Positions 55,785 to 64,000 of a stretch of DNA of 64,000 bases are shown here, piece after piece. Each line of letters begins with the position of its first letter. Positions within the stretch are counted from its first letter, which is position 1. The translations under genes were made by a program, and so were the position numbers. Source of the stretch: Candidatus Dojkabacteria bacterium (GTDB lineage Bacteria; Patescibacteriota; Dojkabacteria; B142; OLB20); NCBI GenBank assembly GCA_030583785.1, contig CP129475.1, positions 95,559 to 159,558 of the forward strand. Direction: 5' to 3'. The notes beneath the pieces are model-generated. The model saw only the letters and a list, made by a program, of their open reading frames with translations. It was not told where the DNA came from and made no database searches.

Positions 55785-56138
55785 TTAAAATAAATCTAGT
55801 TGTGACTTTTTGGCTGTTAATACCTTCTTGTCTTTCTTTCCAAAAGTTATCTTACAAATTTGAGATAACTTCCACATAAATACCTTACCCTTGTTTTTTG
55901 TGTTCGGATAATCAGAAGCAAATGAGGCTGCAGCTTCAAGTTTAGCTCTGGGTAATTGCTTTGCTAGTTTAATGTATAGAGCTTTGTGTTTAAGATCGTT
56001 TAATTGATGTGCAAGTCGCAAACCAAAGTCTTGAAACTCTTCTGAGACATATTTATTTGCCTCACTATAACGATCTATGAAATCATTGTTTAAAAGTATG
56101 TCTTTTGCTGATTTAGGCTCTTTTCGTTTAGGAAGCAT
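55785..56138 (-). CDS. hypothetical basic protein
   Basis: 117 aa, Lys-rich. I recognise no family. Confidence 0.4.
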   Translation of the reverse strand: MLPKRKEPKSAKDILLNNDFIDRYSEANKYVSEEFQDFGLRLAHQLNDLKHKALYIKLAKQLPRAKLEAAASFASDYPNTKNKGKVFMWKLSQICKITFGKKDKKVLTAKKSQLDLF

Positions 56139-57564
56139 TATTCAAATTATTCTTAACTTGAACTATCATATTTCTAAATCCATGGCTACCCATAAAAGCA
56201 ATTACCGTATGATTCTTGTTATTAGATTTGTATTCGCTTATGAATTTTAGTAGCGTTTCGTCATCGGGTATAACTTGGATATCGTTGCCGTAGTTTTTAA
56301 GTTGCCTTGCTAAGTCGTCTTCGTCGATGTGCTTAAGATCACTTGCAGGAAGTTTTGTAAACCTCGGAAAAATAACCTTATCGGCTAGTATGAAGGCATC
56401 TTTATATGTAGAGATTGCTTCAGTTGTCCTACTTCCGGTATTTGGTTCATAGATAACAAGAATTTTTGAGCTTGGATATTCTTGTTTGATTGCAGATAAA
56501 GAGCCAATTACTTTTGCAGGTGAACTGGCAAAATCATCTATTAATACACATTTTGCATCTTCATAAACTTTTTCTAATCTTCTTTTTATACCCTTAAAGT
56601 CTTCGAGACCTTGTTGAATATATTCTTTTCTAACTCCAAGCGTTGAGCATAGGGCTGTTGCAGCAAGTATGTTTTCGAGATTGAATTCGCCTAGTACAGT
56701 AGTTTGAAATGGAATTATTTCTGTAGTATCCGTTTGCTTAACAAGTGTCATGAGTGGTTTAGATTCTTTAAGAAGATACCAGTCAGGTTTAATAAGTGAT
56801 TTTGACAAGTTACTTGAATAGTACACCTTCTTGTTAGATGATTCTTTAGCTAGCTTTACACAGTTCTTGTCGTTAGCGTTAATAACAAGTATGCCATGTT
56901 CTGGTAACTGACGAATAAGGCTTGCAAATACTTCTAAGTATTCATTTTCAGACTTGTAAATGTCTGTATGGTCCCATTTACAGGAAGTGAGAAGCAAGTG
57001 TGTTGGCTGATATTTGCTGAATTTTGGATTTCTATCTTGAAGCGAAATAATGTATTCGTCACCTTCTACTATGGAGTACTTTGTTTTGTCAGTTTTTGAT
57101 TTAATAGGCAAAATGCTGTTTGAACTGATGCCGCCAAACATCCAACTAATATTTTGATTGGCGGCAAGAAAAATGTTTACTAGCAAAGATGTTGTGGTTG
57201 TTTTACCGTAGGTTCCAGCCACTACGATTGAATTATCTTTATTAATGACATGTTCGGCAATTATGTCCGTGTAGTTAACAATCTGAATGTTGAGCTTCTT
57301 TGCTTCAATAACTTCTGGATTTGAATCACCTTTTAAACCTTGCATTAGAACAAATGTTGGGTGATTACCATTAGCATCCGTAAGCCTGTCTGCCTTATAG
57401 TTAGGTTTAAAATCAATTTTATGAGTTTTTAGAAAATCACTAATTGGAGGATAGAAACCTTTGTCGGATCCTGTAACTTTCCAACCTAAGTTTTTATACA
57501 TCAATGCCACTGCGGATGTTGTAACACCTGCTATACCAATGATATGAATCCACTTATTCTGCAT
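56128..57564 (-). CDS. MurC/Mpl-family Mur ligase (N-terminus more Mpl-like)
   Basis: IHIIGIAGVTTSAVALMYKNLGWKVTGSDKGFYPPIS resembles the Mpl N-terminus (HILGICGTFMG...TGSDANVYPPMS). Mur ligase P-loop VAGTYGKTTTTS and a C-terminal domain follow. Confidence 0.7.
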   Translation of the reverse strand: MQNKWIHIIGIAGVTTSAVALMYKNLGWKVTGSDKGFYPPISDFLKTHKIDFKPNYKADRLTDANGNHPTFVLMQGLKGDSNPEVIEAKKLNIQIVNYTDIIAEHVINKDNSIVVAGTYGKTTTTSLLVNIFLAANQNISWMFGGISSNSILPIKSKTDKTKYSIVEGDEYIISLQDRNPKFSKYQPTHLLLTSCKWDHTDIYKSENEYLEVFASLIRQLPEHGILVINANDKNCVKLAKESSNKKVYYSSNLSKSLIKPDWYLLKESKPLMTLVKQTDTTEIIPFQTTVLGEFNLENILAATALCSTLGVRKEYIQQGLEDFKGIKRRLEKVYEDAKCVLIDDFASSPAKVIGSLSAIKQEYPSSKILVIYEPNTGSRTTEAISTYKDAFILADKVIFPRFTKLPASDLKHIDEDDLARQLKNYGNDIQVIPDDETLLKFISEYKSNNKNHTVIAFMGSHGFRNMIVQVKNNLNNAS

Positions 57565-57755
57565 AACCTAATACTAGCACAAACTTGACCGCTCTCAACT
57601 TAGAAATAAAATAATTAAGGTTTTTTTGTAGGACAAAATTCATCATTTCTCTTAAAGTAATAGTCAGTAAAGAAAAACGAGAGAAAATAATATATACCAT
57701 TTAAATATCACTGTAGCTTGACAGTCACAATCGCTAGTTGTTATGTTTATTACGC

Positions 57756-57773
57756 ACCACAATAAATTGTGGT
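57756..57773 (+). promoter_or_regulatory. putative NrdR-box-like palindromic operator upstream of nrdR
   Basis: ACCACAAT-AA-ATTGTGGT is a perfect 8-bp inverted repeat. It resembles the NrdR box core CACwAT..ATwGTG. It sits about 30 nt upstream of the nrdR start. Confidence 0.5.
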
Positions 57774-57802
57774 CATATTAAATAAACATTACCTTGCACT
57801 TA

Positions 57803-58267
57803 ATGTTGTGTCCTTATTGCCATTCAAACAATTCCAAGGTCGTTGATAAAAGAGATAACAAAGAAACAGGCGTAACCAGAAGAAGAAGAGAGTGTTTGCA
57901 ATGCAAAAAAAGATTTACTACATACGAAAGAGTTGAAACAATAAGTCTTCATGTAGTAAAAAGAAGTGGTAAGTTAGAAGAATTTGATCGAGAGAAGCTC
58001 AAAAAAGGCATAGTAAAAGCTGTAAAGAAAAGACAAATCCCCGAAGCAGAGATTGATGATCTCATAGACGACATCGAACTCAAACTGCTCAATAGACAAA
58101 CTAAAGAGATTCGTTCCACAGAGATCGGAAAAATGGTACTTACAAGACTTAAAAAGTTAGATACTATCGGATATTTGCTGTTTGCATCTGTATACAGAGA
58201 TTTTAATAGTATCAAAGACTTTGAAGATGCGATTGCAGAATTAAAAGCTCCAAATAATATAGATTAA
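57803..58267 (+). CDS. nrdR: transcriptional repressor NrdR
   Basis: MLCPYCHSNNSKVVDKR...RRRECLQCKKRFTTYE Zn-ribbon followed by an ATP-cone. The ORF-track TTG start at 57794 was trimmed to the ATG at 57803. Confidence 0.9.
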   Translation: MLCPYCHSNNSKVVDKRDNKETGVTRRRRECLQCKKRFTTYERVETISLHVVKRSGKLEEFDREKLKKGIVKAVKKRQIPEAEIDDLIDDIELKLLNRQTKEIRSTEIGKMVLTRLKKLDTIGYLLFASVYRDFNSIKDFEDAIAELKAPNNID

Positions 58268-58282
58268 TATTCAAGCAAAACC

Positions 58283-60064
58283 ATGACTAAAAAAAGATTC
58301 TCCAAACAAGTCAACCTCACAGATAATGCTAATCTAATTGCAGAAAAAAGATATCTTAAGCTCGAAGCGGACGGATCTGTTAAAGAATCTGTCAACGAAA
58401 TGTTTACCAGAGTAGCTAGATTTATTGCAAGCGGAGATCTTGACCTCTCTGATAAATCAGAGAGCTATAAGAAACCTTCTCAAAGCGAACTAGAAGAAAT
58501 CGAAGACAGCTTCTATGAAATACAAGCTAATCTAGAATTTCTCTCTGGAATGTCGTTACTAGACAGGGGTAAACAAGATTTAGTTGCGGCGTGTTATGTA
58601 TTACCAATAAAAGACAGCATAGAGTCCATATATGGAACACTTGCCAATGCAGTTGTTTTGCACAGAAGAGGAGCTGGTATTGGCTATGATTTTTCAGAAA
58701 TAAGACCAGAAGGAGACATTGTGAATACAACGGGTAGAGAAGCCAGCGGTCCGATCTCTTTCATGAAGTTATACGACTATTCCTCTGAAGTTATAATGAA
58801 CAGAGGCGCCGTTAGGCATGCTGGTCATATGGGAATTTTGCGCATAGATCACCCAGATGTCAGAAAATTCCTGTCGGCCAAACAAGATAATACTCAACTA
58901 ACAAACTTCAATATATCTATTGCAATCACAGACGAGTTTATTGATGCTTTGGAGAAGAACACTGAATACGAGCTTAAACATGAAGGTAAAGTGTATGGAA
59001 AAATCCTTGCTAAAGAAATGCTTACAGAAATCGCAGAAAGTATTCATAAAAGCGGAGAACCTGGCTTTATCTTTGTAGACGAGATTAATAGACACAATCC
59101 AACATTGCATGTCGGGTTAATGACATCAACTAACCAATGTGGCGAACAACCATTGCTTCCTTACGAAGCGTGTAATCTTGGTTCGGTGGTACTCAATAAA
59201 TTTGTTATCAAAGGAACAGATAACAAGAAAACACATGATCGAATTGATTGGGATAGATTGGAATATGTTGTTAAAACTGCTGTGCATTTTCTGGATAACA
59301 CGATCACAGTGTCCAGGCATCTTCTTCCAGAGATTGAAAAATTGGTTAAACATGGGAACAGAAAAATTGGAGTCGGTGTCATGGGTTGGGCAGATATGCT
59401 TTACGAGCTCAATATCCCCTATAACTCTCAAGAAGCTCTCGACCTAGCTGAACAAATAATGGGCTTTATTAAAGAAAAGGGACATGAAAAATCACAAGAA
59501 CTTGGCAAACTCAAAGGTGACTTTGGTAACTTCAAAGGCTCAAAATGGCACAAAGAAGGATACACGAACATGCGCAACGCGACAGTTACAACCATTGCTC
59601 CCACAGGCACTACCAGCTTGCTAGCCAACTGTAATGGAGGTATAGAACCATTTTTTGCACTTGCTTATATTCGCAAGAATATGGAAACAATGGGTGACAC
59701 AGAAATGATTTATGTAAACGAACTACTTGAACAAAAACTTAAAGACGAATGGCTTTACGATAAAGAGCTCATGCGAAATATTGCCGAGAAAGGGACCTTA
59801 TCATCATTTAATCAAATTCCCGAACGAATTAGAAAAGTTTATGTTTGCTCATTTGACATCGAACCCGAGTGGCACATTAGAATGCAGGCAGCCTTTCAAA
59901 AATTCACAGATAATGCAGTTTCAAAAACAATAAATCTTCCTGAATCAGCTAGCACAGAAGATATTATTTCTGCATTCAAGCTGGCTGCAAAGCTAGGTCT
60001 AAAAGGACTGACAATTTATCGTGACAAAAGCAGAGACCAGCAAGTACTTAATTTAACTAAATAA
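58283..60064 (+). CDS. nrdJ: class II (adenosylcobalamin-dependent) ribonucleotide reductase NrdJ
   Basis: CYVLPIKDS...GAGIGYDFSEIRPEGD, ILRIDHPD, NQCGEQPLLPYEACNLGS (thiyl-radical Cys loop), and C-terminal SKTINLP...GLKGLTIYRD. 593 aa. Confidence 0.88.
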   Translation: MTKKRFSKQVNLTDNANLIAEKRYLKLEADGSVKESVNEMFTRVARFIASGDLDLSDKSESYKKPSQSELEEIEDSFYEIQANLEFLSGMSLLDRGKQDLVAACYVLPIKDSIESIYGTLANAVVLHRRGAGIGYDFSEIRPEGDIVNTTGREASGPISFMKLYDYSSEVIMNRGAVRHAGHMGILRIDHPDVRKFLSAKQDNTQLTNFNISIAITDEFIDALEKNTEYELKHEGKVYGKILAKEMLTEIAESIHKSGEPGFIFVDEINRHNPTLHVGLMTSTNQCGEQPLLPYEACNLGSVVLNKFVIKGTDNKKTHDRIDWDRLEYVVKTAVHFLDNTITVSRHLLPEIEKLVKHGNRKIGVGVMGWADMLYELNIPYNSQEALDLAEQIMGFIKEKGHEKSQELGKLKGDFGNFKGSKWHKEGYTNMRNATVTTIAPTGTTSLLANCNGGIEPFFALAYIRKNMETMGDTEMIYVNELLEQKLKDEWLYDKELMRNIAEKGTLSSFNQIPERIRKVYVCSFDIEPEWHIRMQAAFQKFTDNAVSKTINLPESASTEDIISAFKLAAKLGLKGLTIYRDKSRDQQVLNLTK

Positions 60065-60066
60065 TT

Positions 60067-60516
60067 ATGCAAGTGGGATTAGATACATTCAATATTTCAT
60101 ACAATGTCTTTATGAGTAAAGTCGGCAAAGACTTATCTGTAGGAGTTAGGATTAAAGCTTCAACAGATACCAAAAAAGATGTTGTTAGAGTATGGACAGA
60201 TACAAAAAATTGGCAGTTTAGTTTGGTGGGGCTCATAGACGAAGATGCAAACATTTCGATTGAAAGGGTAGAGATTCAATCGTTCGGTGATAGTCTTGCT
60301 TACTTAAAACTTATTGCTATTCACGAGAAGCCTTCGTTTAAGATAGATCTTCAAAAACTTGGTTCTGGATTTGCTGAACTTGCGCAAGTTTCTAACGATG
60401 AAGCACAAATCTTTCTAGATAATTATATGCAGTCATCTGTAAATTTAACATTAACGGAGCAACTGTTCTCTGATTATGCCAAAGACGAGAACACAAAAAG
60501 CTGGCTAACATTATGA
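60067..60516 (+). CDS. hypothetical protein
   Basis: 149 aa, located between nrdJ and the Nudix gene. I recognise no motifs. Confidence 0.45.
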   Translation: MQVGLDTFNISYNVFMSKVGKDLSVGVRIKASTDTKKDVVRVWTDTKNWQFSLVGLIDEDANISIERVEIQSFGDSLAYLKLIAIHEKPSFKIDLQKLGSGFAELAQVSNDEAQIFLDNYMQSSVNLTLTEQLFSDYAKDENTKSWLTL

Positions 60517-61382
60517 ACAATCTAACAATAAACACAATAGGTCTTGTCTATAACACAGAAGGGAAATTCCTGATTGGAAAAAGATCCTCAATAGAATTAC
60601 ACGAACCAGGTCTATATTCATATCTAGGAGGCAAACTTGATTACAATGGTGAATTGCAGGCTGGTAAATCGATGTTTCTTTTAGAAGAAAACCTTAAAAG
60701 AGAAATAAAAGAAGAAGCAGGAGTTGAAATTGAAGTCTCAGAATATCTTTCTAGTCATGCATTTGTTAAAGATAACGGAGATAAAGTTGTGGTCATCGCA
60801 TATTTAGCAGAGTATGTTTCAGGAATTCTAACTCCGCAACAAGATGAGGTTGAAGAATTAATTTGGATCACCCGAGAAAACCTAAAGGAAATAAACACCT
60901 TAGATATTATTAAAGAAGTCTATACTCAGGCTTTTGACAAAATTGAACAGAATAGACAAAGATTTACTATTGAACTGGCCGGAATCGTCTTAAATGATAA
61001 CGAAGAATTTTTATTAGTCAGAAAAAATAATAGCGCAGAAAAGTTTTCCCTTCCAAGCGGAGCTTTCAGCTCAAAAGCAGTTGGTAGCTGGGAAGTTATG
61101 GAAAGCTCCCTTGCAAAGATAATATTTCAGCAGACCGGAATAGAAATTGCAGATGGTCCGATTCCTTTTACAGATCAATTACTTATGGATAAAACTGAAG
61201 AGAAGTTACTTCAACTATTTATCTGCCGCTATAAATACGGAAATATCCAAATTAAATCTCCAGAAGAAATTGCCGAAGTAAAATGGATTCATATAAATGA
61301 CATTGAAAGAAAAGATCTGAACGAAAGGGACTACCTTATCCTTTACAAAGCATCAGATTTTATTTCAAAACTAAACGATTAA
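60513..61382 (+). CDS. tandem-Nudix-domain hydrolase
   Basis: First Nudix box GGKLDYNGELQAGKSMFLLEENLKREIKEEAGVEI (GX5EX7REUXEEXGU). The second half (LPSGAFSSKAVGSWEVMESSLAKIIFQQTGIEI) is a degenerate second Nudix fold. Confidence 0.7.
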   Translation: MNNLTINTIGLVYNTEGKFLIGKRSSIELHEPGLYSYLGGKLDYNGELQAGKSMFLLEENLKREIKEEAGVEIEVSEYLSSHAFVKDNGDKVVVIAYLAEYVSGILTPQQDEVEELIWITRENLKEINTLDIIKEVYTQAFDKIEQNRQRFTIELAGIVLNDNEEFLLVRKNNSAEKFSLPSGAFSSKAVGSWEVMESSLAKIIFQQTGIEIADGPIPFTDQLLMDKTEEKLLQLFICRYKYGNIQIKSPEEIAEVKWIHINDIERKDLNERDYLILYKASDFISKLND

Positions 61383-61402
61383 TTTATTCACATTATATTT
61401 AC

Positions 61403-64000
61403 ATGATGAACACAGCTAAAACAGACTTCTTTGACGATATTCTTGATACACCGGCAGATCTTTTTGATCCAAAAGTATCTGCCAATTCATTAGAGATCAT
61501 GAAAAAAAGACATCTCTTAAAAGACGAAAACGGTGATCTGCTTGAAGAGCCTAAAGATATGTTTTGGCGCGTTGCCAGAAGCATGGCACTTGAAGATGGT
61601 AAATATGTCAAAGGAGCTCAGGCCAGAAAAGAAAGAGTAATAATGAGAACGGCAAAAGAATTTTACGAACTTCTTGCACAAAACAGATTCTTACCCGGTT
61701 CTAGAGTTCTTTACGAGGCAGGAAACGAAATCGACGGAACAGGACAGCTTTCATCATGTTTTGTACTTCCAATAGAAGATAGCCTTGAATCAATTTTCGA
61801 AACAATGAAGGAAGCAGCTATTGTGCAAAAGAACAATGGTGGAACAGGCTTTAACTTCTCGCACATCAGACCAAAAGGAGATAGTGTTGGTGGCACCCCT
61901 AATGTTGCAGCAGGTCCAATACATTTTGTCAGAAGCTTTTCACAAGCCTTCGATCAGGTCCTGCAAGGCAAAAAACGAGGTGGTGGCAACATGGCTATAC
62001 TTAATGTTAATCATCCAGACATCATTGAATTTATAAACCTAAAAGGACAAGATTCTTCGATTCGCAACTTTAATATATCTGTTGGTATAACCGACGAGTT
62101 TATGCAAGCTGTCAAAGATGACGAAGAGTATGACTTAATTAATCCAAGAACAGGTAAATCCGTAGAGAAGAAAAAAGCCAGAGAAGTATTTAACCTTATT
62201 TGCCAAAAGGCATGGGAATGTGCAGACCCGGGATTGTTCTTTTTAGATACGACACAAAACGCAAATCCAACAAAGCCTTTAGGTATCATAGAAGCAACAA
62301 ATCCATGCGGAGAAGAACCTCTAAGAGCGTATGAATCATGTAATCTAGGCTCAATAGTACTTCCTTCGCATCTTATTAAAGTTGATGATCGCTACGAAAT
62401 CGACTGGGAACTTCTTAGGAAAACAACCAGATCAGCAATACACTTCCTGGACAACATGATAGATCTAAGCAAGTTTCCGCTTAAAAAGATTGAAGAACAG
62501 GTTGAAATGACACGCAAACTGGGACTTGGTGTCGTTGGATTGGCCTCAATGTTCTATCAAATGCGTATTGCTTACAATTCAACCGAAGGAACAGAGCTAG
62601 CAAGAAAAATAATTAGATTCGTACAAGATGAGTCAGTTAAAGAATCTGAATTGCTTGCCAAAGATCGTGGTGTATTCCCCGGATTTGCAGGCAGTAAATG
62701 GGACGAAATGGGTATAAAAGTTCGAAATGCAACTATGACATCAGTCGCACCAACTGGTACTTTAAGTCTTGTAGCAGATACTTCAAGTGGAATTGAGCCT
62801 GTATTTGCTTTGGTTTACAAACGAAACAGTTTTTATCAAGACGAAGCACAAGAAAATCGCAAGGGCTTGCTATATATTGACAGACACTTTGAAACTTATG
62901 CTAAAGAATCTGGATTCTATTCAGAAGAACTTATGGAACGAATTGCCGATAATCATGGTTCATTGCAGGGTTTAGATGAAGTTCCAGACGAAGCAAAAGA
63001 AGTATTTGTTGTAACGCACGACATATCACCAGAATGGCATGTGCGCATGCAAGCTTCAGCTCAAGAATCTGTCGATGCAGCTGTTTCTAAAACAATCAAT
63101 TTACCTTCTGATGCCACGATTGAAGATGTGAAAAGAGCCTATACTAATGCTTGGGAGCTTGGTTGTAAAGGCATAACAATTTATCGAGACGGAAGTAAAC
63201 AATATCAGGTACTTGAAAATGTTTCCAAAAAAGAAAAGGTTGAAAATATCGATGAACAATCGACTAAAGACGAGTCAGTTACAAGTTCCGAAACTGAAGA
63301 ACTAACAGAACATGCACTTACAGTTTTAGAAAAGAGGGCATTAAAAAAAGATTCAGCAGGAAATGTTATTGAATCGGCCGATGAACTTTGGATGAGAATT
63401 GCTTCGAAAGTTGCTGAAGCCGAGTCTTCTGAAAATCGCGAGATATTTACTAAAGAATTCTATCAAATCCTTTCTAAAAGAGAATTCCTTAGTGGCGGAA
63501 CACTTCTCTGGGCTGGTATGGGCGAAGAAACCATTCTTTCTAAATGCCTTGTACTCCCTGTAGGAGATTCAATAGATTCAATTTTCCAAACTCTAAACTG
63601 GAACATCCAATGTCTAAGAAGAGGTGTAGGAACAGGCTTTAATTTCTCAAATATTCGCTCAAGTTACGCCAAAGTAAAAACAACAGGTGAATTTGCTGCC
63701 GGACCTGTTGAATATTTACGAATGTATAACAGAGCACAAGACACAATTAGAGGACGAGGAGGCAGGGGACTTGGCTCAATGGCAATACTAAATGCGGATC
63801 ATCCCGATGTTGAGGCGTTTATTGAATGTAAAGATGATCTAAACGCAATTTCTCATTACAATATATCTGTTGGCATTAGCGATGCCTTTATGAGAGCTGT
63901 AAAATCAGATGCAGATTGGAATCTAGTTGATCCGAATGACGGACAGATTTATAAGACCGTCAAAGCAAGGGCGTTATTTGAGAAAATTGCGCAACACGCT
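61403..64000 (+). CDS. nrdJ: second class II ribonucleotide reductase that continues in frame into a third NrdJ-like module (tandem NrdJ-NrdJ fusion); 3' end outside window
   Basis: Manual translation from ATG 61403. Module 1 has CFVLPIEDS...GGTGFNFSHIRPKGD, ILNVNHPD, NPCGEEPLRAYESCNLGS and SKTINLPSDAT...GCKGITIYRD (ends near 63200). After an acidic Ser-rich linker, module 2 restarts with CLVLPVGDSIDSIF...GTGFNFSNIR...ILNADHPDVEAFIECK. I found no stop codon through to 64000. Confidence 0.8.
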   Translation, partial: MMNTAKTDFFDDILDTPADLFDPKVSANSLEIMKKRHLLKDENGDLLEEPKDMFWRVARSMALEDGKYVKGAQARKERVIMRTAKEFYELLAQNRFLPGSRVLYEAGNEIDGTGQLSSCFVLPIEDSLESIFETMKEAAIVQKNNGGTGFNFSHIRPKGDSVGGTPNVAAGPIHFVRSFSQAFDQVLQGKKRGGGNMAILNVNHPDIIEFINLKGQDSSIRNFNISVGITDEFMQAVKDDEEYDLINPRTGKSVEKKKAREVFNLICQKAWECADPGLFFLDTTQNANPTKPLGIIEATNPCGEEPLRAYESCNLGSIVLPSHLIKVDDRYEIDWELLRKTTRSAIHFLDNMIDLSKFPLKKIEEQVEMTRKLGLGVVGLASMFYQMRIAYNSTEGTELARKIIRFVQDESVKESELLAKDRGVFPGFAGSKWDEMGIKVRNATMTSVAPTGTLSLVADTSSGIEPVFALVYKRNSFYQDEAQENRKGLLYIDRHFETYAKESGFYSEELMERIADNHGSLQGLDEVPDEAKEVFVVTHDISPEWHVRMQASAQESVDAAVSKTINLPSDATIEDVKRAYTNAWELGCKGITIYRDGSKQYQVLENVSKKEKVENIDEQSTKDESVTSSETEELTEHALTVLEKRALKKDSAGNVIESADELWMRIASKVAEAESSENREIFTKEFYQILSKREFLSGGTLLWAGMGEETILSKCLVLPVGDSIDSIFQTLNWNIQCLRRGVGTGFNFSNIRSSYAKVKTTGEFAAGPVEYLRMYNRAQDTIRGRGGRGLGSMAILNADHPDVEAFIECKDDLNAISHYNISVGISDAFMRAVKSDADWNLVDPNDGQIYKTVKARALFEKIAQHA

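Follow-up and report, generated by a model that had tools for sequence, protein, structure and literature searches.

Class II ribonucleotide reductases (RNRs) are described as either homodimers or monomers built from one gene product. The locus considered here, from a bacterium with a tiny genome among the Dojkabacteria (candidate division WS6, Patescibacteria; candidate phyla radiation, CPR), encodes three class II RNR modules. The stretch analysed here, 64 kb of contig CP129475.1 and hereafter called the window, carries between 57.7 and 64.0 kb five tightly spaced genes on the + strand. Their order is nrdR (a repressor gene), nrdJ-S (a free-standing class II RNR, its product S), orf149, nudix (a Nudix hydrolase) and nrdJ-AB (a fusion of two class II RNR modules, A and B), with intergenic distances of 15, 2, -4 and 20 nt. 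An earlier interpretation by a model working from the letters (the sequence-only reading) had listed nrdR, a 593-aa nrdJ, a 149-aa open reading frame (ORF), a Nudix gene and an NrdJ-NrdJ fusion, and all of these were recovered at the positions it gave. From their tight packing, the five genes probably constitute a single operon. The analysis supports a real variant of class II RNR that is conserved and seems not to have been described before; its parts are taken up below.

Three class II barrels with intact catalytic residues

The nrdJ-S gene (58283-60064, +) encodes a 593-aa free-standing class II barrel that has neither a C-terminal redox domain nor a C-terminal cysteine pair. In the fusion, module A (61403-63247, +; aa 1-615) is a complete, tail-less class II barrel, followed by an acidic inter-module linker (63248-63352, +; aa 616-650) and by module B (63353-64000, +), which the window cuts at aa 866 of 1465. 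The rest of module B was read from contig L001 (76.7 kb), which extends downstream of the window end and agrees with the window at all but one of 13,488 shared bases. The sole difference, at window position 61814, exchanges Ala for Pro in module A (KEAAIV vs KEPAIV). The NrdJ model TIGR02504 returned 587 bits for S and 833 bits for the window-truncated fusion (cut-off 400), and the RTPR model TIGR02505 gave low scores of 54-66 bits against a cut-off of 340.

The residues required for catalysis were followed in an alignment of 113 S, 116 A and 116 B modules together with the Thermotoga maritima enzyme, the numbering of which is used throughout. The thiyl-radical cysteine, the redox cysteine pair and the catalytic Asn and Glu (C134, N320, C322, E324 and C333) are 100% conserved in S, A and B, and the same holds for D141, R171 and R207. 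Position 158 is mostly K or R, with Q and W also occurring in A. Altogether 79 alignment columns are conserved across the three classes. Judged by these sequences, all three modules are class II (by family match, adenosylcobalamin-type) RNR barrels that retain every catalytic and every checked effector-site residue. They do differ in loop 2, which reads [LM]RGAVRHAG in S, LQGKKRGGG in A and RRGG-RGLG, with a one-residue deletion, in B, each version being conserved within its class. Class-specific substitutions number 11 in S as compared with 1-2 in A and B. Two further positions distinguish the classes: the equivalent of T. maritima T500 (residue C450 of S, window 59630-59632) is occupied by Cys in 86% of S modules and 94% of B modules and by Thr in A, and at the equivalent of V622 a Cys occurs in 85% of A modules and 100% of B modules, with Leu in S.

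The divergence among the modules is deep. Pairwise protein identity of S, A and B amounts to 39-41%, and at the DNA level identities of 62-71% were obtained only over the best stretches of 56-74 nt, with no long DNA repeats. In quick neighbour-joining distance trees with bootstrap, S, A and B formed three separate clades (bootstrap 98-100 for S, 85-99 for B and 69-88 for A). A grouping of S with B appeared at 52-73% neighbour-joining bootstrap, and no firm branching order of the three classes emerged from these trees. The three together are not monophyletic relative to the single NrdJs of Peribacteria and Haloarcula, to which A is the nearest class. The modules are thus, on these comparisons, clearly ancient paralogues whose triplication predates the split of the lineages that carry them. 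A phylogeny of this kind had been proposed by the sequence-only reading as a way to tell recent duplication from ancient divergence, and its outcome is the latter; the near-identity of modules that would have betrayed an assembly duplication was looked for and is not the case.

A single redox domain at the end of the fusion

The complete fusion in L001 (L001:10891-15288) comprises 1465 aa, laid out as module A (aa 1 to ~615), the acidic linker, module B (~aa 651-1225), a TSCPD/IscU-like domain and a six-cysteine tail. The tail region corresponds to the cysteine-rich C-terminal redox-shuttle domain (CRD), which is described as spanning 150-220 aa with six conserved cysteines at its end. In the majority of dimeric class II RNRs this domain carries electrons donated by thioredoxin to the active site (Loderer et al., PMC5704485). 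In the A-B fusion the CRD extends over ~240 aa and carries the motif CxxC-x9-CxxCxxC-x4-C, and six cysteines in this arrangement were present in 115/116 fusions. Conversely, S ends right after the barrel (...TIYRDKSRDQQVLNLTK), with no cysteine beyond it, and module A leads straight into the linker (median ~52 aa across 116 fusions) without a CRD. Since S stops after the barrel and A runs into the linker, the sequences provide one redox-shuttle domain per three barrels, located at the end of B. The missing C-terminal cysteine pair of the 593-aa copy had been recognized before and is borne out here. The further proposal that this copy may need a partner for re-reduction fits a tail-less protein that always occurs alongside the fusion with the only CRD; the dependence itself is something we infer. 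Motifs of thioredoxin or thioredoxin reductase were not found anywhere in the 64-kb window.

A different tail was encountered in a Haloarcula plasmid NrdJ (L051:1471-3198), a 575-aa protein with a short CVGEC tail in place of the CRD, an example of another minimal route to the re-reduction of a class II barrel.

Conservation of the locus in Patescibacteria

When the fusion was used as query, nearly all of the best 120 matches were double-module proteins of 1373-1668 aa from Dojkabacteria, Kerfeldbacteria, Parcubacteria and other Patescibacteria. The S query retrieved a matching tail-less family of 573-618 aa, often on the same contigs as the fusions. In public annotations both proteins are simply named NrdJ. 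Species-representative genomes were then scanned with an S profile, which yielded 38 loci: 35 of S type with downstream sequence, 2 on contigs ending within S, and 1 Peribacteria NrdJ with an ATP-cone. In 35/35 loci with downstream sequence the next RNR gene after S was the A(-B-CRD) fusion, usually directly adjacent, and S followed by A-B was likewise seen in every genomic context that was inspected individually. S and A-B co-occur strictly. The gene nrdR lies immediately upstream of S in 27 loci. Three modules at one locus, which had been called unusual in the sequence-only reading, are so when held against textbook RNRs but constitute the conserved norm in a large Patescibacteria family.

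An apparent split of A and B into separate genes in Doudnabacteria (L046) was traced to a masked run of N and set aside as an artefact. At the Peribacteria locus (L048:9677-11857) there is one NrdJ, a 726-aa protein that carries an ATP-cone at its N terminus and lacks a CRD; of the modules, A is nearest to it (48% identity). This enzyme represents another solution adopted within the CPR and serves well as an outgroup.

NrdR and its predicted operator

The nrdR gene (57803-58267, +) encodes, from its ATG, a 154-aa Zn-ribbon and ATP-cone repressor that scored 170.3 bits with TIGR00244 (cut-off 124.65), 64.5 bits with PF22811 and 71.3 bits with PF03477. An alternative in-frame TTG start exists at 57794; the 154-aa ATG form is the one called in Logan contigs. 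Upstream lies a sigma-70-like promoter (57718..57747, +), predicted by consensus match, with TTGACA at 57718-57723, an 18-nt spacer and TG-TATGTT (57742-57747), which agrees with the consensus at 10/12 positions and has the TG extension.

Two putative NrdR boxes are superimposed on this promoter. Box 1 (57725..57740, +; TCACAATCGCTAGTTG) is a weaker half-palindrome within the promoter spacer, and box 2 (57757..57772, +; CCACAATAAATTGTGG), which begins 10 bp after the -10 element, is the core of a perfect 8+2+8 palindrome, ACCACAAT-AA-ATTGTGGT, lying exactly at 57756-57773. The palindrome upstream of nrdR is exactly as noted in the sequence-only reading and fits an NrdR operator. The boxes are separated by a 16-bp linker (32 bp centre to centre). 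Box 2 is the only site in the 64-kb window with <=3 mismatches from the generic NrdR consensus (13/16); as one such hit is expected by chance, the case for it rests on position and conservation. In this respect, the box pair recurs upstream of nrdR in 26 related loci (consensus ACACAAnnnnTnGTTG), with a mean score of 23.8 of 32 as compared with a mean of 18.6 and a maximum of 23 in shuffled sequence, and in most of these loci the best-scoring pair is spaced by 32 bp. A TTGAC-type -35 element directly ahead of box 1 was also found in L007, L008 and L009. At L011, where nrdR is missing from the locus, NrdR boxes are missing as well.

By the published rule, an NrdR operator consists of two 16-bp boxes with a 15-16-bp linker (PMC13584703; 10.1101/2024.05.27.596032), and the predicted operator agrees with it, having two partially palindromic 16-bp boxes and a 16-bp linker inside and just after the promoter. 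The NrdR systems of E. coli, Streptomyces, Listeria and others likewise combine a Zn-ribbon and ATP-cone repressor with two 16-bp partial palindromes 16 bp apart that overlap the promoter in an autoregulatory layout; there is no notable difference here, and the regulator is an ordinary member of its kind in a CPR genome. By sequence, then, the locus has NrdR together with a two-box operator overlapping a sigma-70-like promoter, in a layout that is conserved in relatives, and the operon is probably NrdR-repressed.

Two other candidate boxes were rejected. The segment at 61386-61404, earlier put forward as an imperfect internal NrdR box, contains 16-mers matching at best 10/16, has no partner box and is unconserved upstream of the fusion in six orthologous loci; the second box is instead the one at 57725-57740. 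A possible third box at 57796-57811 (GCACTTAATGTTGTGT, 12/16) overlaps the nrdR start and the conserved MLCPYC codons, 39 bp from box 2, and was taken as a coding by-product.

The Nudix protein and orf149

The Nudix gene (60513-61382, +) encodes 289 aa and matched PF00293 with 66 bits (cut-off 21). An identical protein is encoded on 15 contigs of public assemblies, and the gene order is the same in independent assemblies. The N-domain (60513-60947, +) is MutT/NudG-like with its catalytic residues kept: the REIKEEAGV helix of the Nudix box (GX5EX7REUXEEXGU) is intact and its E-x-x-E-E motif does not vary among orthologues, but an additional 8-9 aa lie between the G...E part and the helix. By profile the N-domain is closest to the MutT-related structure 3grn (2.7e-16), then to NudG 2rrk and then to MutT. 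The C-domain (60948-61382, +) is a degenerate Nudix fold with a box reading AKIIFQQTGI, in which FQQTG stands in place of REUxEE and QQ replaces the catalytic EE; it has an invariant IPFTD and a weak MutT similarity (5e-5) and is still recognizably Nudix-like. The earlier description of the protein as a tandem Nudix hydrolase therefore holds for the presence of two Nudix domains, of which only the N-domain keeps the catalytic glutamates.

The resemblance to MutT/NudG-type (d)NTP pyrophosphohydrolases (NudG is a CTP/dCTP pyrophosphohydrolase) lies in the N-domain profile and the intact REUxEExGU helix. The protein differs from these enzymes in the 8-9-aa box insertion, in the fused dead domain with IPFTD and in scores far below every NCBIfam equivalog cut-off (MutT 29.8 vs 148; NudG 33.9 vs 156; NudI 24.7 vs 95). 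The NAD+ diphosphatase model NF001299 reached 39 bits against a cut-off of 158. NADH-specific Nudix enzymes carry the signature SQPWPFPxS, and those specific for ADP-ribose a proline ~16 residues after the Nudix box; neither follows the Nudix box in this sequence. Among the activities that the sequence-only reading had offered as examples, the MutT-like one is favoured by resemblance, and the signature of the ADP-ribose type is absent. A MutT-like (d)NTP pyrophosphohydrolase appears to be the best description of the N-domain.

Between S and the Nudix gene, orf149 (60067-60516, +) starts 2 nt past the nrdJ-S stop and its 3' end overlaps the Nudix start by 4 nt. It encodes a small cysteine-free protein confined to this lineage, for which neither Pfam nor NCBIfam gave a match. 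A word search turned up five homologues, and an exhaustive HMMER search of 1.84 billion proteins yielded 24 representatives. All are stand-alone proteins, ~150 aa long and devoid of a conserved cysteine. An AF2 model of moderate confidence (pLDDT 66) gave no fold match, and comparison with the CRD showed the two to be unrelated. That orf149 is so closely coupled to both S and the Nudix gene is suggestive of an accessory function.

Genes and domains between S and A-B

The interval between S and A-B is the variable part of the locus. It contains nothing in many loci, orf149 and the two-domain Nudix gene in the window and six loci, orf149 alone in one locus, and a single-domain Nudix gene in Kerfeldbacteria. 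In L013 and L020, orf149 is accompanied by the degenerate Nudix C-domain only, and a Ham1 domain is found in the A-B linker; in L029-L032 a 205-aa P-loop protein occupies the interval upstream of a Ham1-bearing fusion. The Nudix gene was thus present in 8 of ~36 loci, window included, and most related loci are without it. The sequence-only reading had regarded linkage in related genomes as a test of the Nudix gene; the linkage is kept in some lineages, and the gene is absent from most related loci.

The Ham1/ITPase domain (PF01725) is inserted in the linker at L013:12704-17710, L020:11585-16498 and L029-L032 (e.g. L030:12500-17314), and the inserts span the whole Pfam profile (46.5 and 29.7 bits vs a cut-off of 22.5). 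No locus combines Ham1 (6 loci) with the Nudix N-domain (8 loci). In two of the Ham1 loci the degenerate Nudix C-domain persists as a stand-alone gene in which IPFTD is kept and the N-domain lost (L013:12225-12686, L020:11118-11558), and survival of this catalytically dead domain alone suggests that it has a role of its own.

The 205-aa P-loop protein, which replaces orf149 and the Nudix gene at L011:7275-7892 (=L030:11774-12391), L029, L031 and L032, has a weak, sub-threshold match to dNMP kinase and can be called kinase-like only. In L011/L030 a dCTP-deaminase/dUTPase-family gene (L011:4904-5446) lies upstream of S, in the slot that nrdR takes elsewhere, and the site is devoid of NrdR boxes. 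As for the earlier idea that the Nudix enzyme couples deoxyribonucleoside triphosphate (dNTP) synthesis to pool sanitation, the context agrees with it, the same slot or linker elsewhere holding Ham1, a dCTP-deaminase/dUTPase-family gene or a P-loop kinase-like gene. The Nudix gene is lineage-restricted, and only one of its domains is catalytic.

Flanking genes

Divergent from nrdR lies a 478-aa Mur-ligase-family gene (window 56128-57564, - strand), and this neighbourhood is kept in ~20 related loci with S and A-B. Past the window end, a conserved ORF of 63-66 aa is situated directly 3' of the fusion (L001:15313-15504; L007:14380-14580); its product contains LPNLNVY...YRC.ILSM and has one cysteine and no family match. 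On the same strand it is followed by a DHO_dh-family gene, a cytidylyltransferase-like gene and recO. An Rfam search of 56000-64000 returned no credible riboswitch or other RNA.

Discussion

The best solved match for all three modules is the dimeric NrdJ of T. maritima (PDB 1XJE and related), with which they share the ten-stranded barrel, C134, N320, C322, E324 and C333, the effector-site residues D141/R171 and the APTG phosphate loop. In T. maritima a single gene product forms a homodimer, whereas here there are three diverged paralogues, two of them fused and each with its own loop 2. Another parallel to the fusion is the monomeric RTPR of Lactobacillus leichmannii, where one polypeptide supplies both halves of the effector-site interface, much as A-B might. 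In RTPR a short insertion mimics the partner's helices; in A-B, by contrast, an entire barrel with intact catalytic residues would serve as the second half.

With respect to the redox tail, that of A-B matches the six-cysteine CRD described for the NrdJd of Stackebrandtia nassauensis (Loderer et al. 2017, PMC5704485) and also the tails of Ruegeria, Selenomonas and Brevibacillus. The CRD-bearing NrdJd enzymes have one CRD per barrel, as opposed to one per three here, S and A being without. Some Frankia and Alphaproteobacteria resemble the present case in having a tail-less NrdJ beside a CRD-bearing one (PMC5704485). In the present locus, by comparison, the protein with the CRD comprises two barrels in tandem, its gene and that of S are neighbours within one operon, and a large clade has this arrangement as a fixed trait. 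The split NrdJa+NrdJb of Pseudomonas aeruginosa (PMC5704485) is likewise a non-standard partition of NrdJ parts with the CRD on a separate or different chain, but it results from fission of one barrel plus CRD, which is the opposite topology to a fusion of two complete barrels. No description of a tandem NrdJ fusion or of this CPR layout was found in the searchable literature, RNR evolution and CRD papers included. Each part belongs to a known family (NrdR with its boxes, NrdJ, CRD, Nudix), and what appears to be new, as far as the sequences tell, is the combination of tandem diverged barrels, an obligate tail-less third barrel and one CRD.

The following working scheme is, on balance, probable as a whole. 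NrdR loaded with ATP and dATP would bind both boxes and shut off the operon, including its own gene. Folding back on one another, modules A and B would make up a covalent heterodimer in place of the homodimer usual for NrdJ; such pairing within the chain is feasible because the linker of ~50 aa is long enough, and it tolerates the 230-aa Ham1 insertion. The tail-less S would be re-reduced by the CRD of A-B in a larger complex, or might self-dimerise and borrow that CRD. With their distinct loop 2 sequences the barrels may share out substrate or effector specificity, and the Nudix N-domain may hydrolyse non-canonical or surplus (d)NTPs beside the site of synthesis, a role that the Ham1/ITPase domain between A and B would take in the sister lineages. 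A stronger version of this scheme, in which S and A-B-CRD form one obligate hetero-oligomer whose barrels split the four substrates and the effectors via loop 2 and share one CRD, with Nudix or Ham1 docked or tethered, is quite unlikely in our estimate.

Several observations weigh against the working scheme. A linker of ~50 aa is only compatible with A:B pairing. Reconstitution with the CRD in trans failed for S. nassauensis NrdJd (PMC5704485), and supply of a CRD to S in trans is therefore no given. The loop-2 glutamine is not universal in solved class II enzymes (7b9q has KSGG), so a difference in loop 2 does not by itself imply a division of specificity. As most S/A-B loci lack the Nudix gene, it is not essential to the system, and its mutual exclusion with Ham1 (8 vs 6 loci for the Nudix N-domain and Ham1, respectively) rests on few, phylogenetically clustered lineages.

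The main alternative, less likely than the scheme above, is that the operon encodes two independent reductases instead, a homodimer of S and a separate A-B, which would serve different conditions or substrates, S being reduced without a CRD by a thioredoxin/glutaredoxin-like protein or a small thiol. NrdJs without a CRD do exist, accounting for ~30% of NrdJ sequences, and in the two-NrdJd genomes of some Frankia and Alphaproteobacteria only one of the pair has a CRD (PMC5704485); the 575-aa Haloarcula NrdJ and the CRD-less Peribacteria NrdJ are further examples, and S keeps the effector-site residues expected of a dimer. Yet S is without any C-terminal cysteine pair, whereas the Haloarcula enzyme has its CVGEC tail, S was never found without the adjoining A-B (35/35 loci), and all three barrels lie in one operon under one operator. 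That one of the barrels is a non-catalytic pseudo-enzyme with a regulatory or scaffolding function is very improbable. Duplicated enzyme subunits often lose activity, and S is indeed richest in class-specific substitutions (11 vs 1-2), but the thiyl-radical Cys, both redox Cys, Asn and Glu are invariant in three classes of >110 sequences each, which have 79 columns in common.

The accessory genes pose a separate question, namely whether the Nudix gene and orf149 are passengers, the former being a general house-cleaning enzyme that stands in the row by chance. Most S/A-B loci do without the Nudix gene, orf149 is rarer still, unrelated genes crowd together on one strand in CPR genomes, and the substrate of the Nudix protein cannot be assigned from its sequence. 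Conversely, where the Nudix gene is present it always lies between S and A-B in overlapping or near-abutting frames, a single-domain Nudix gene has the same slot in Kerfeldbacteria, and the slot or the A-B linker is elsewhere filled by Ham1, a dCTP-deaminase/dUTPase-family gene or a P-loop kinase-like gene. On balance, chance association is rather unlikely. The probability that the three modules are themselves an artefact of assembly or gene calling, such as a collapsed or expanded repeat or a lost stop codon, is virtually nil. Nothing beyond prior suspicion speaks for it, the split appearance of L046 coming from its masked run of N, and it is already refuted by amino-acid identities of 39-41% with no long DNA repeats and by the recurrence of the same architecture in many independent assemblies, with >100 distinct proteins.

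If the working scheme is correct, a fused asymmetric double barrel and an obligate third barrel on one redox tail would amount to a new quaternary design in an essential, drug-targeted enzyme family, and would be a ready-made system for studies of half-site reactivity, of loop 2 specificity coding and of one CRD serving several active sites. Should the one-hetero-oligomer version apply, dNTP synthesis and pool sanitation would be united in a single machine of minimal-genome symbionts. The arrangement appears to be the standard DNA-precursor route in many Patescibacteria; given their minimal metabolism and probably scavenged cobalamin it bears on how dNTP supply is controlled in these organisms, and the repeated association with Nudix or Ham1 pyrophosphatases hints that sanitation of the nucleotide pool is built in.

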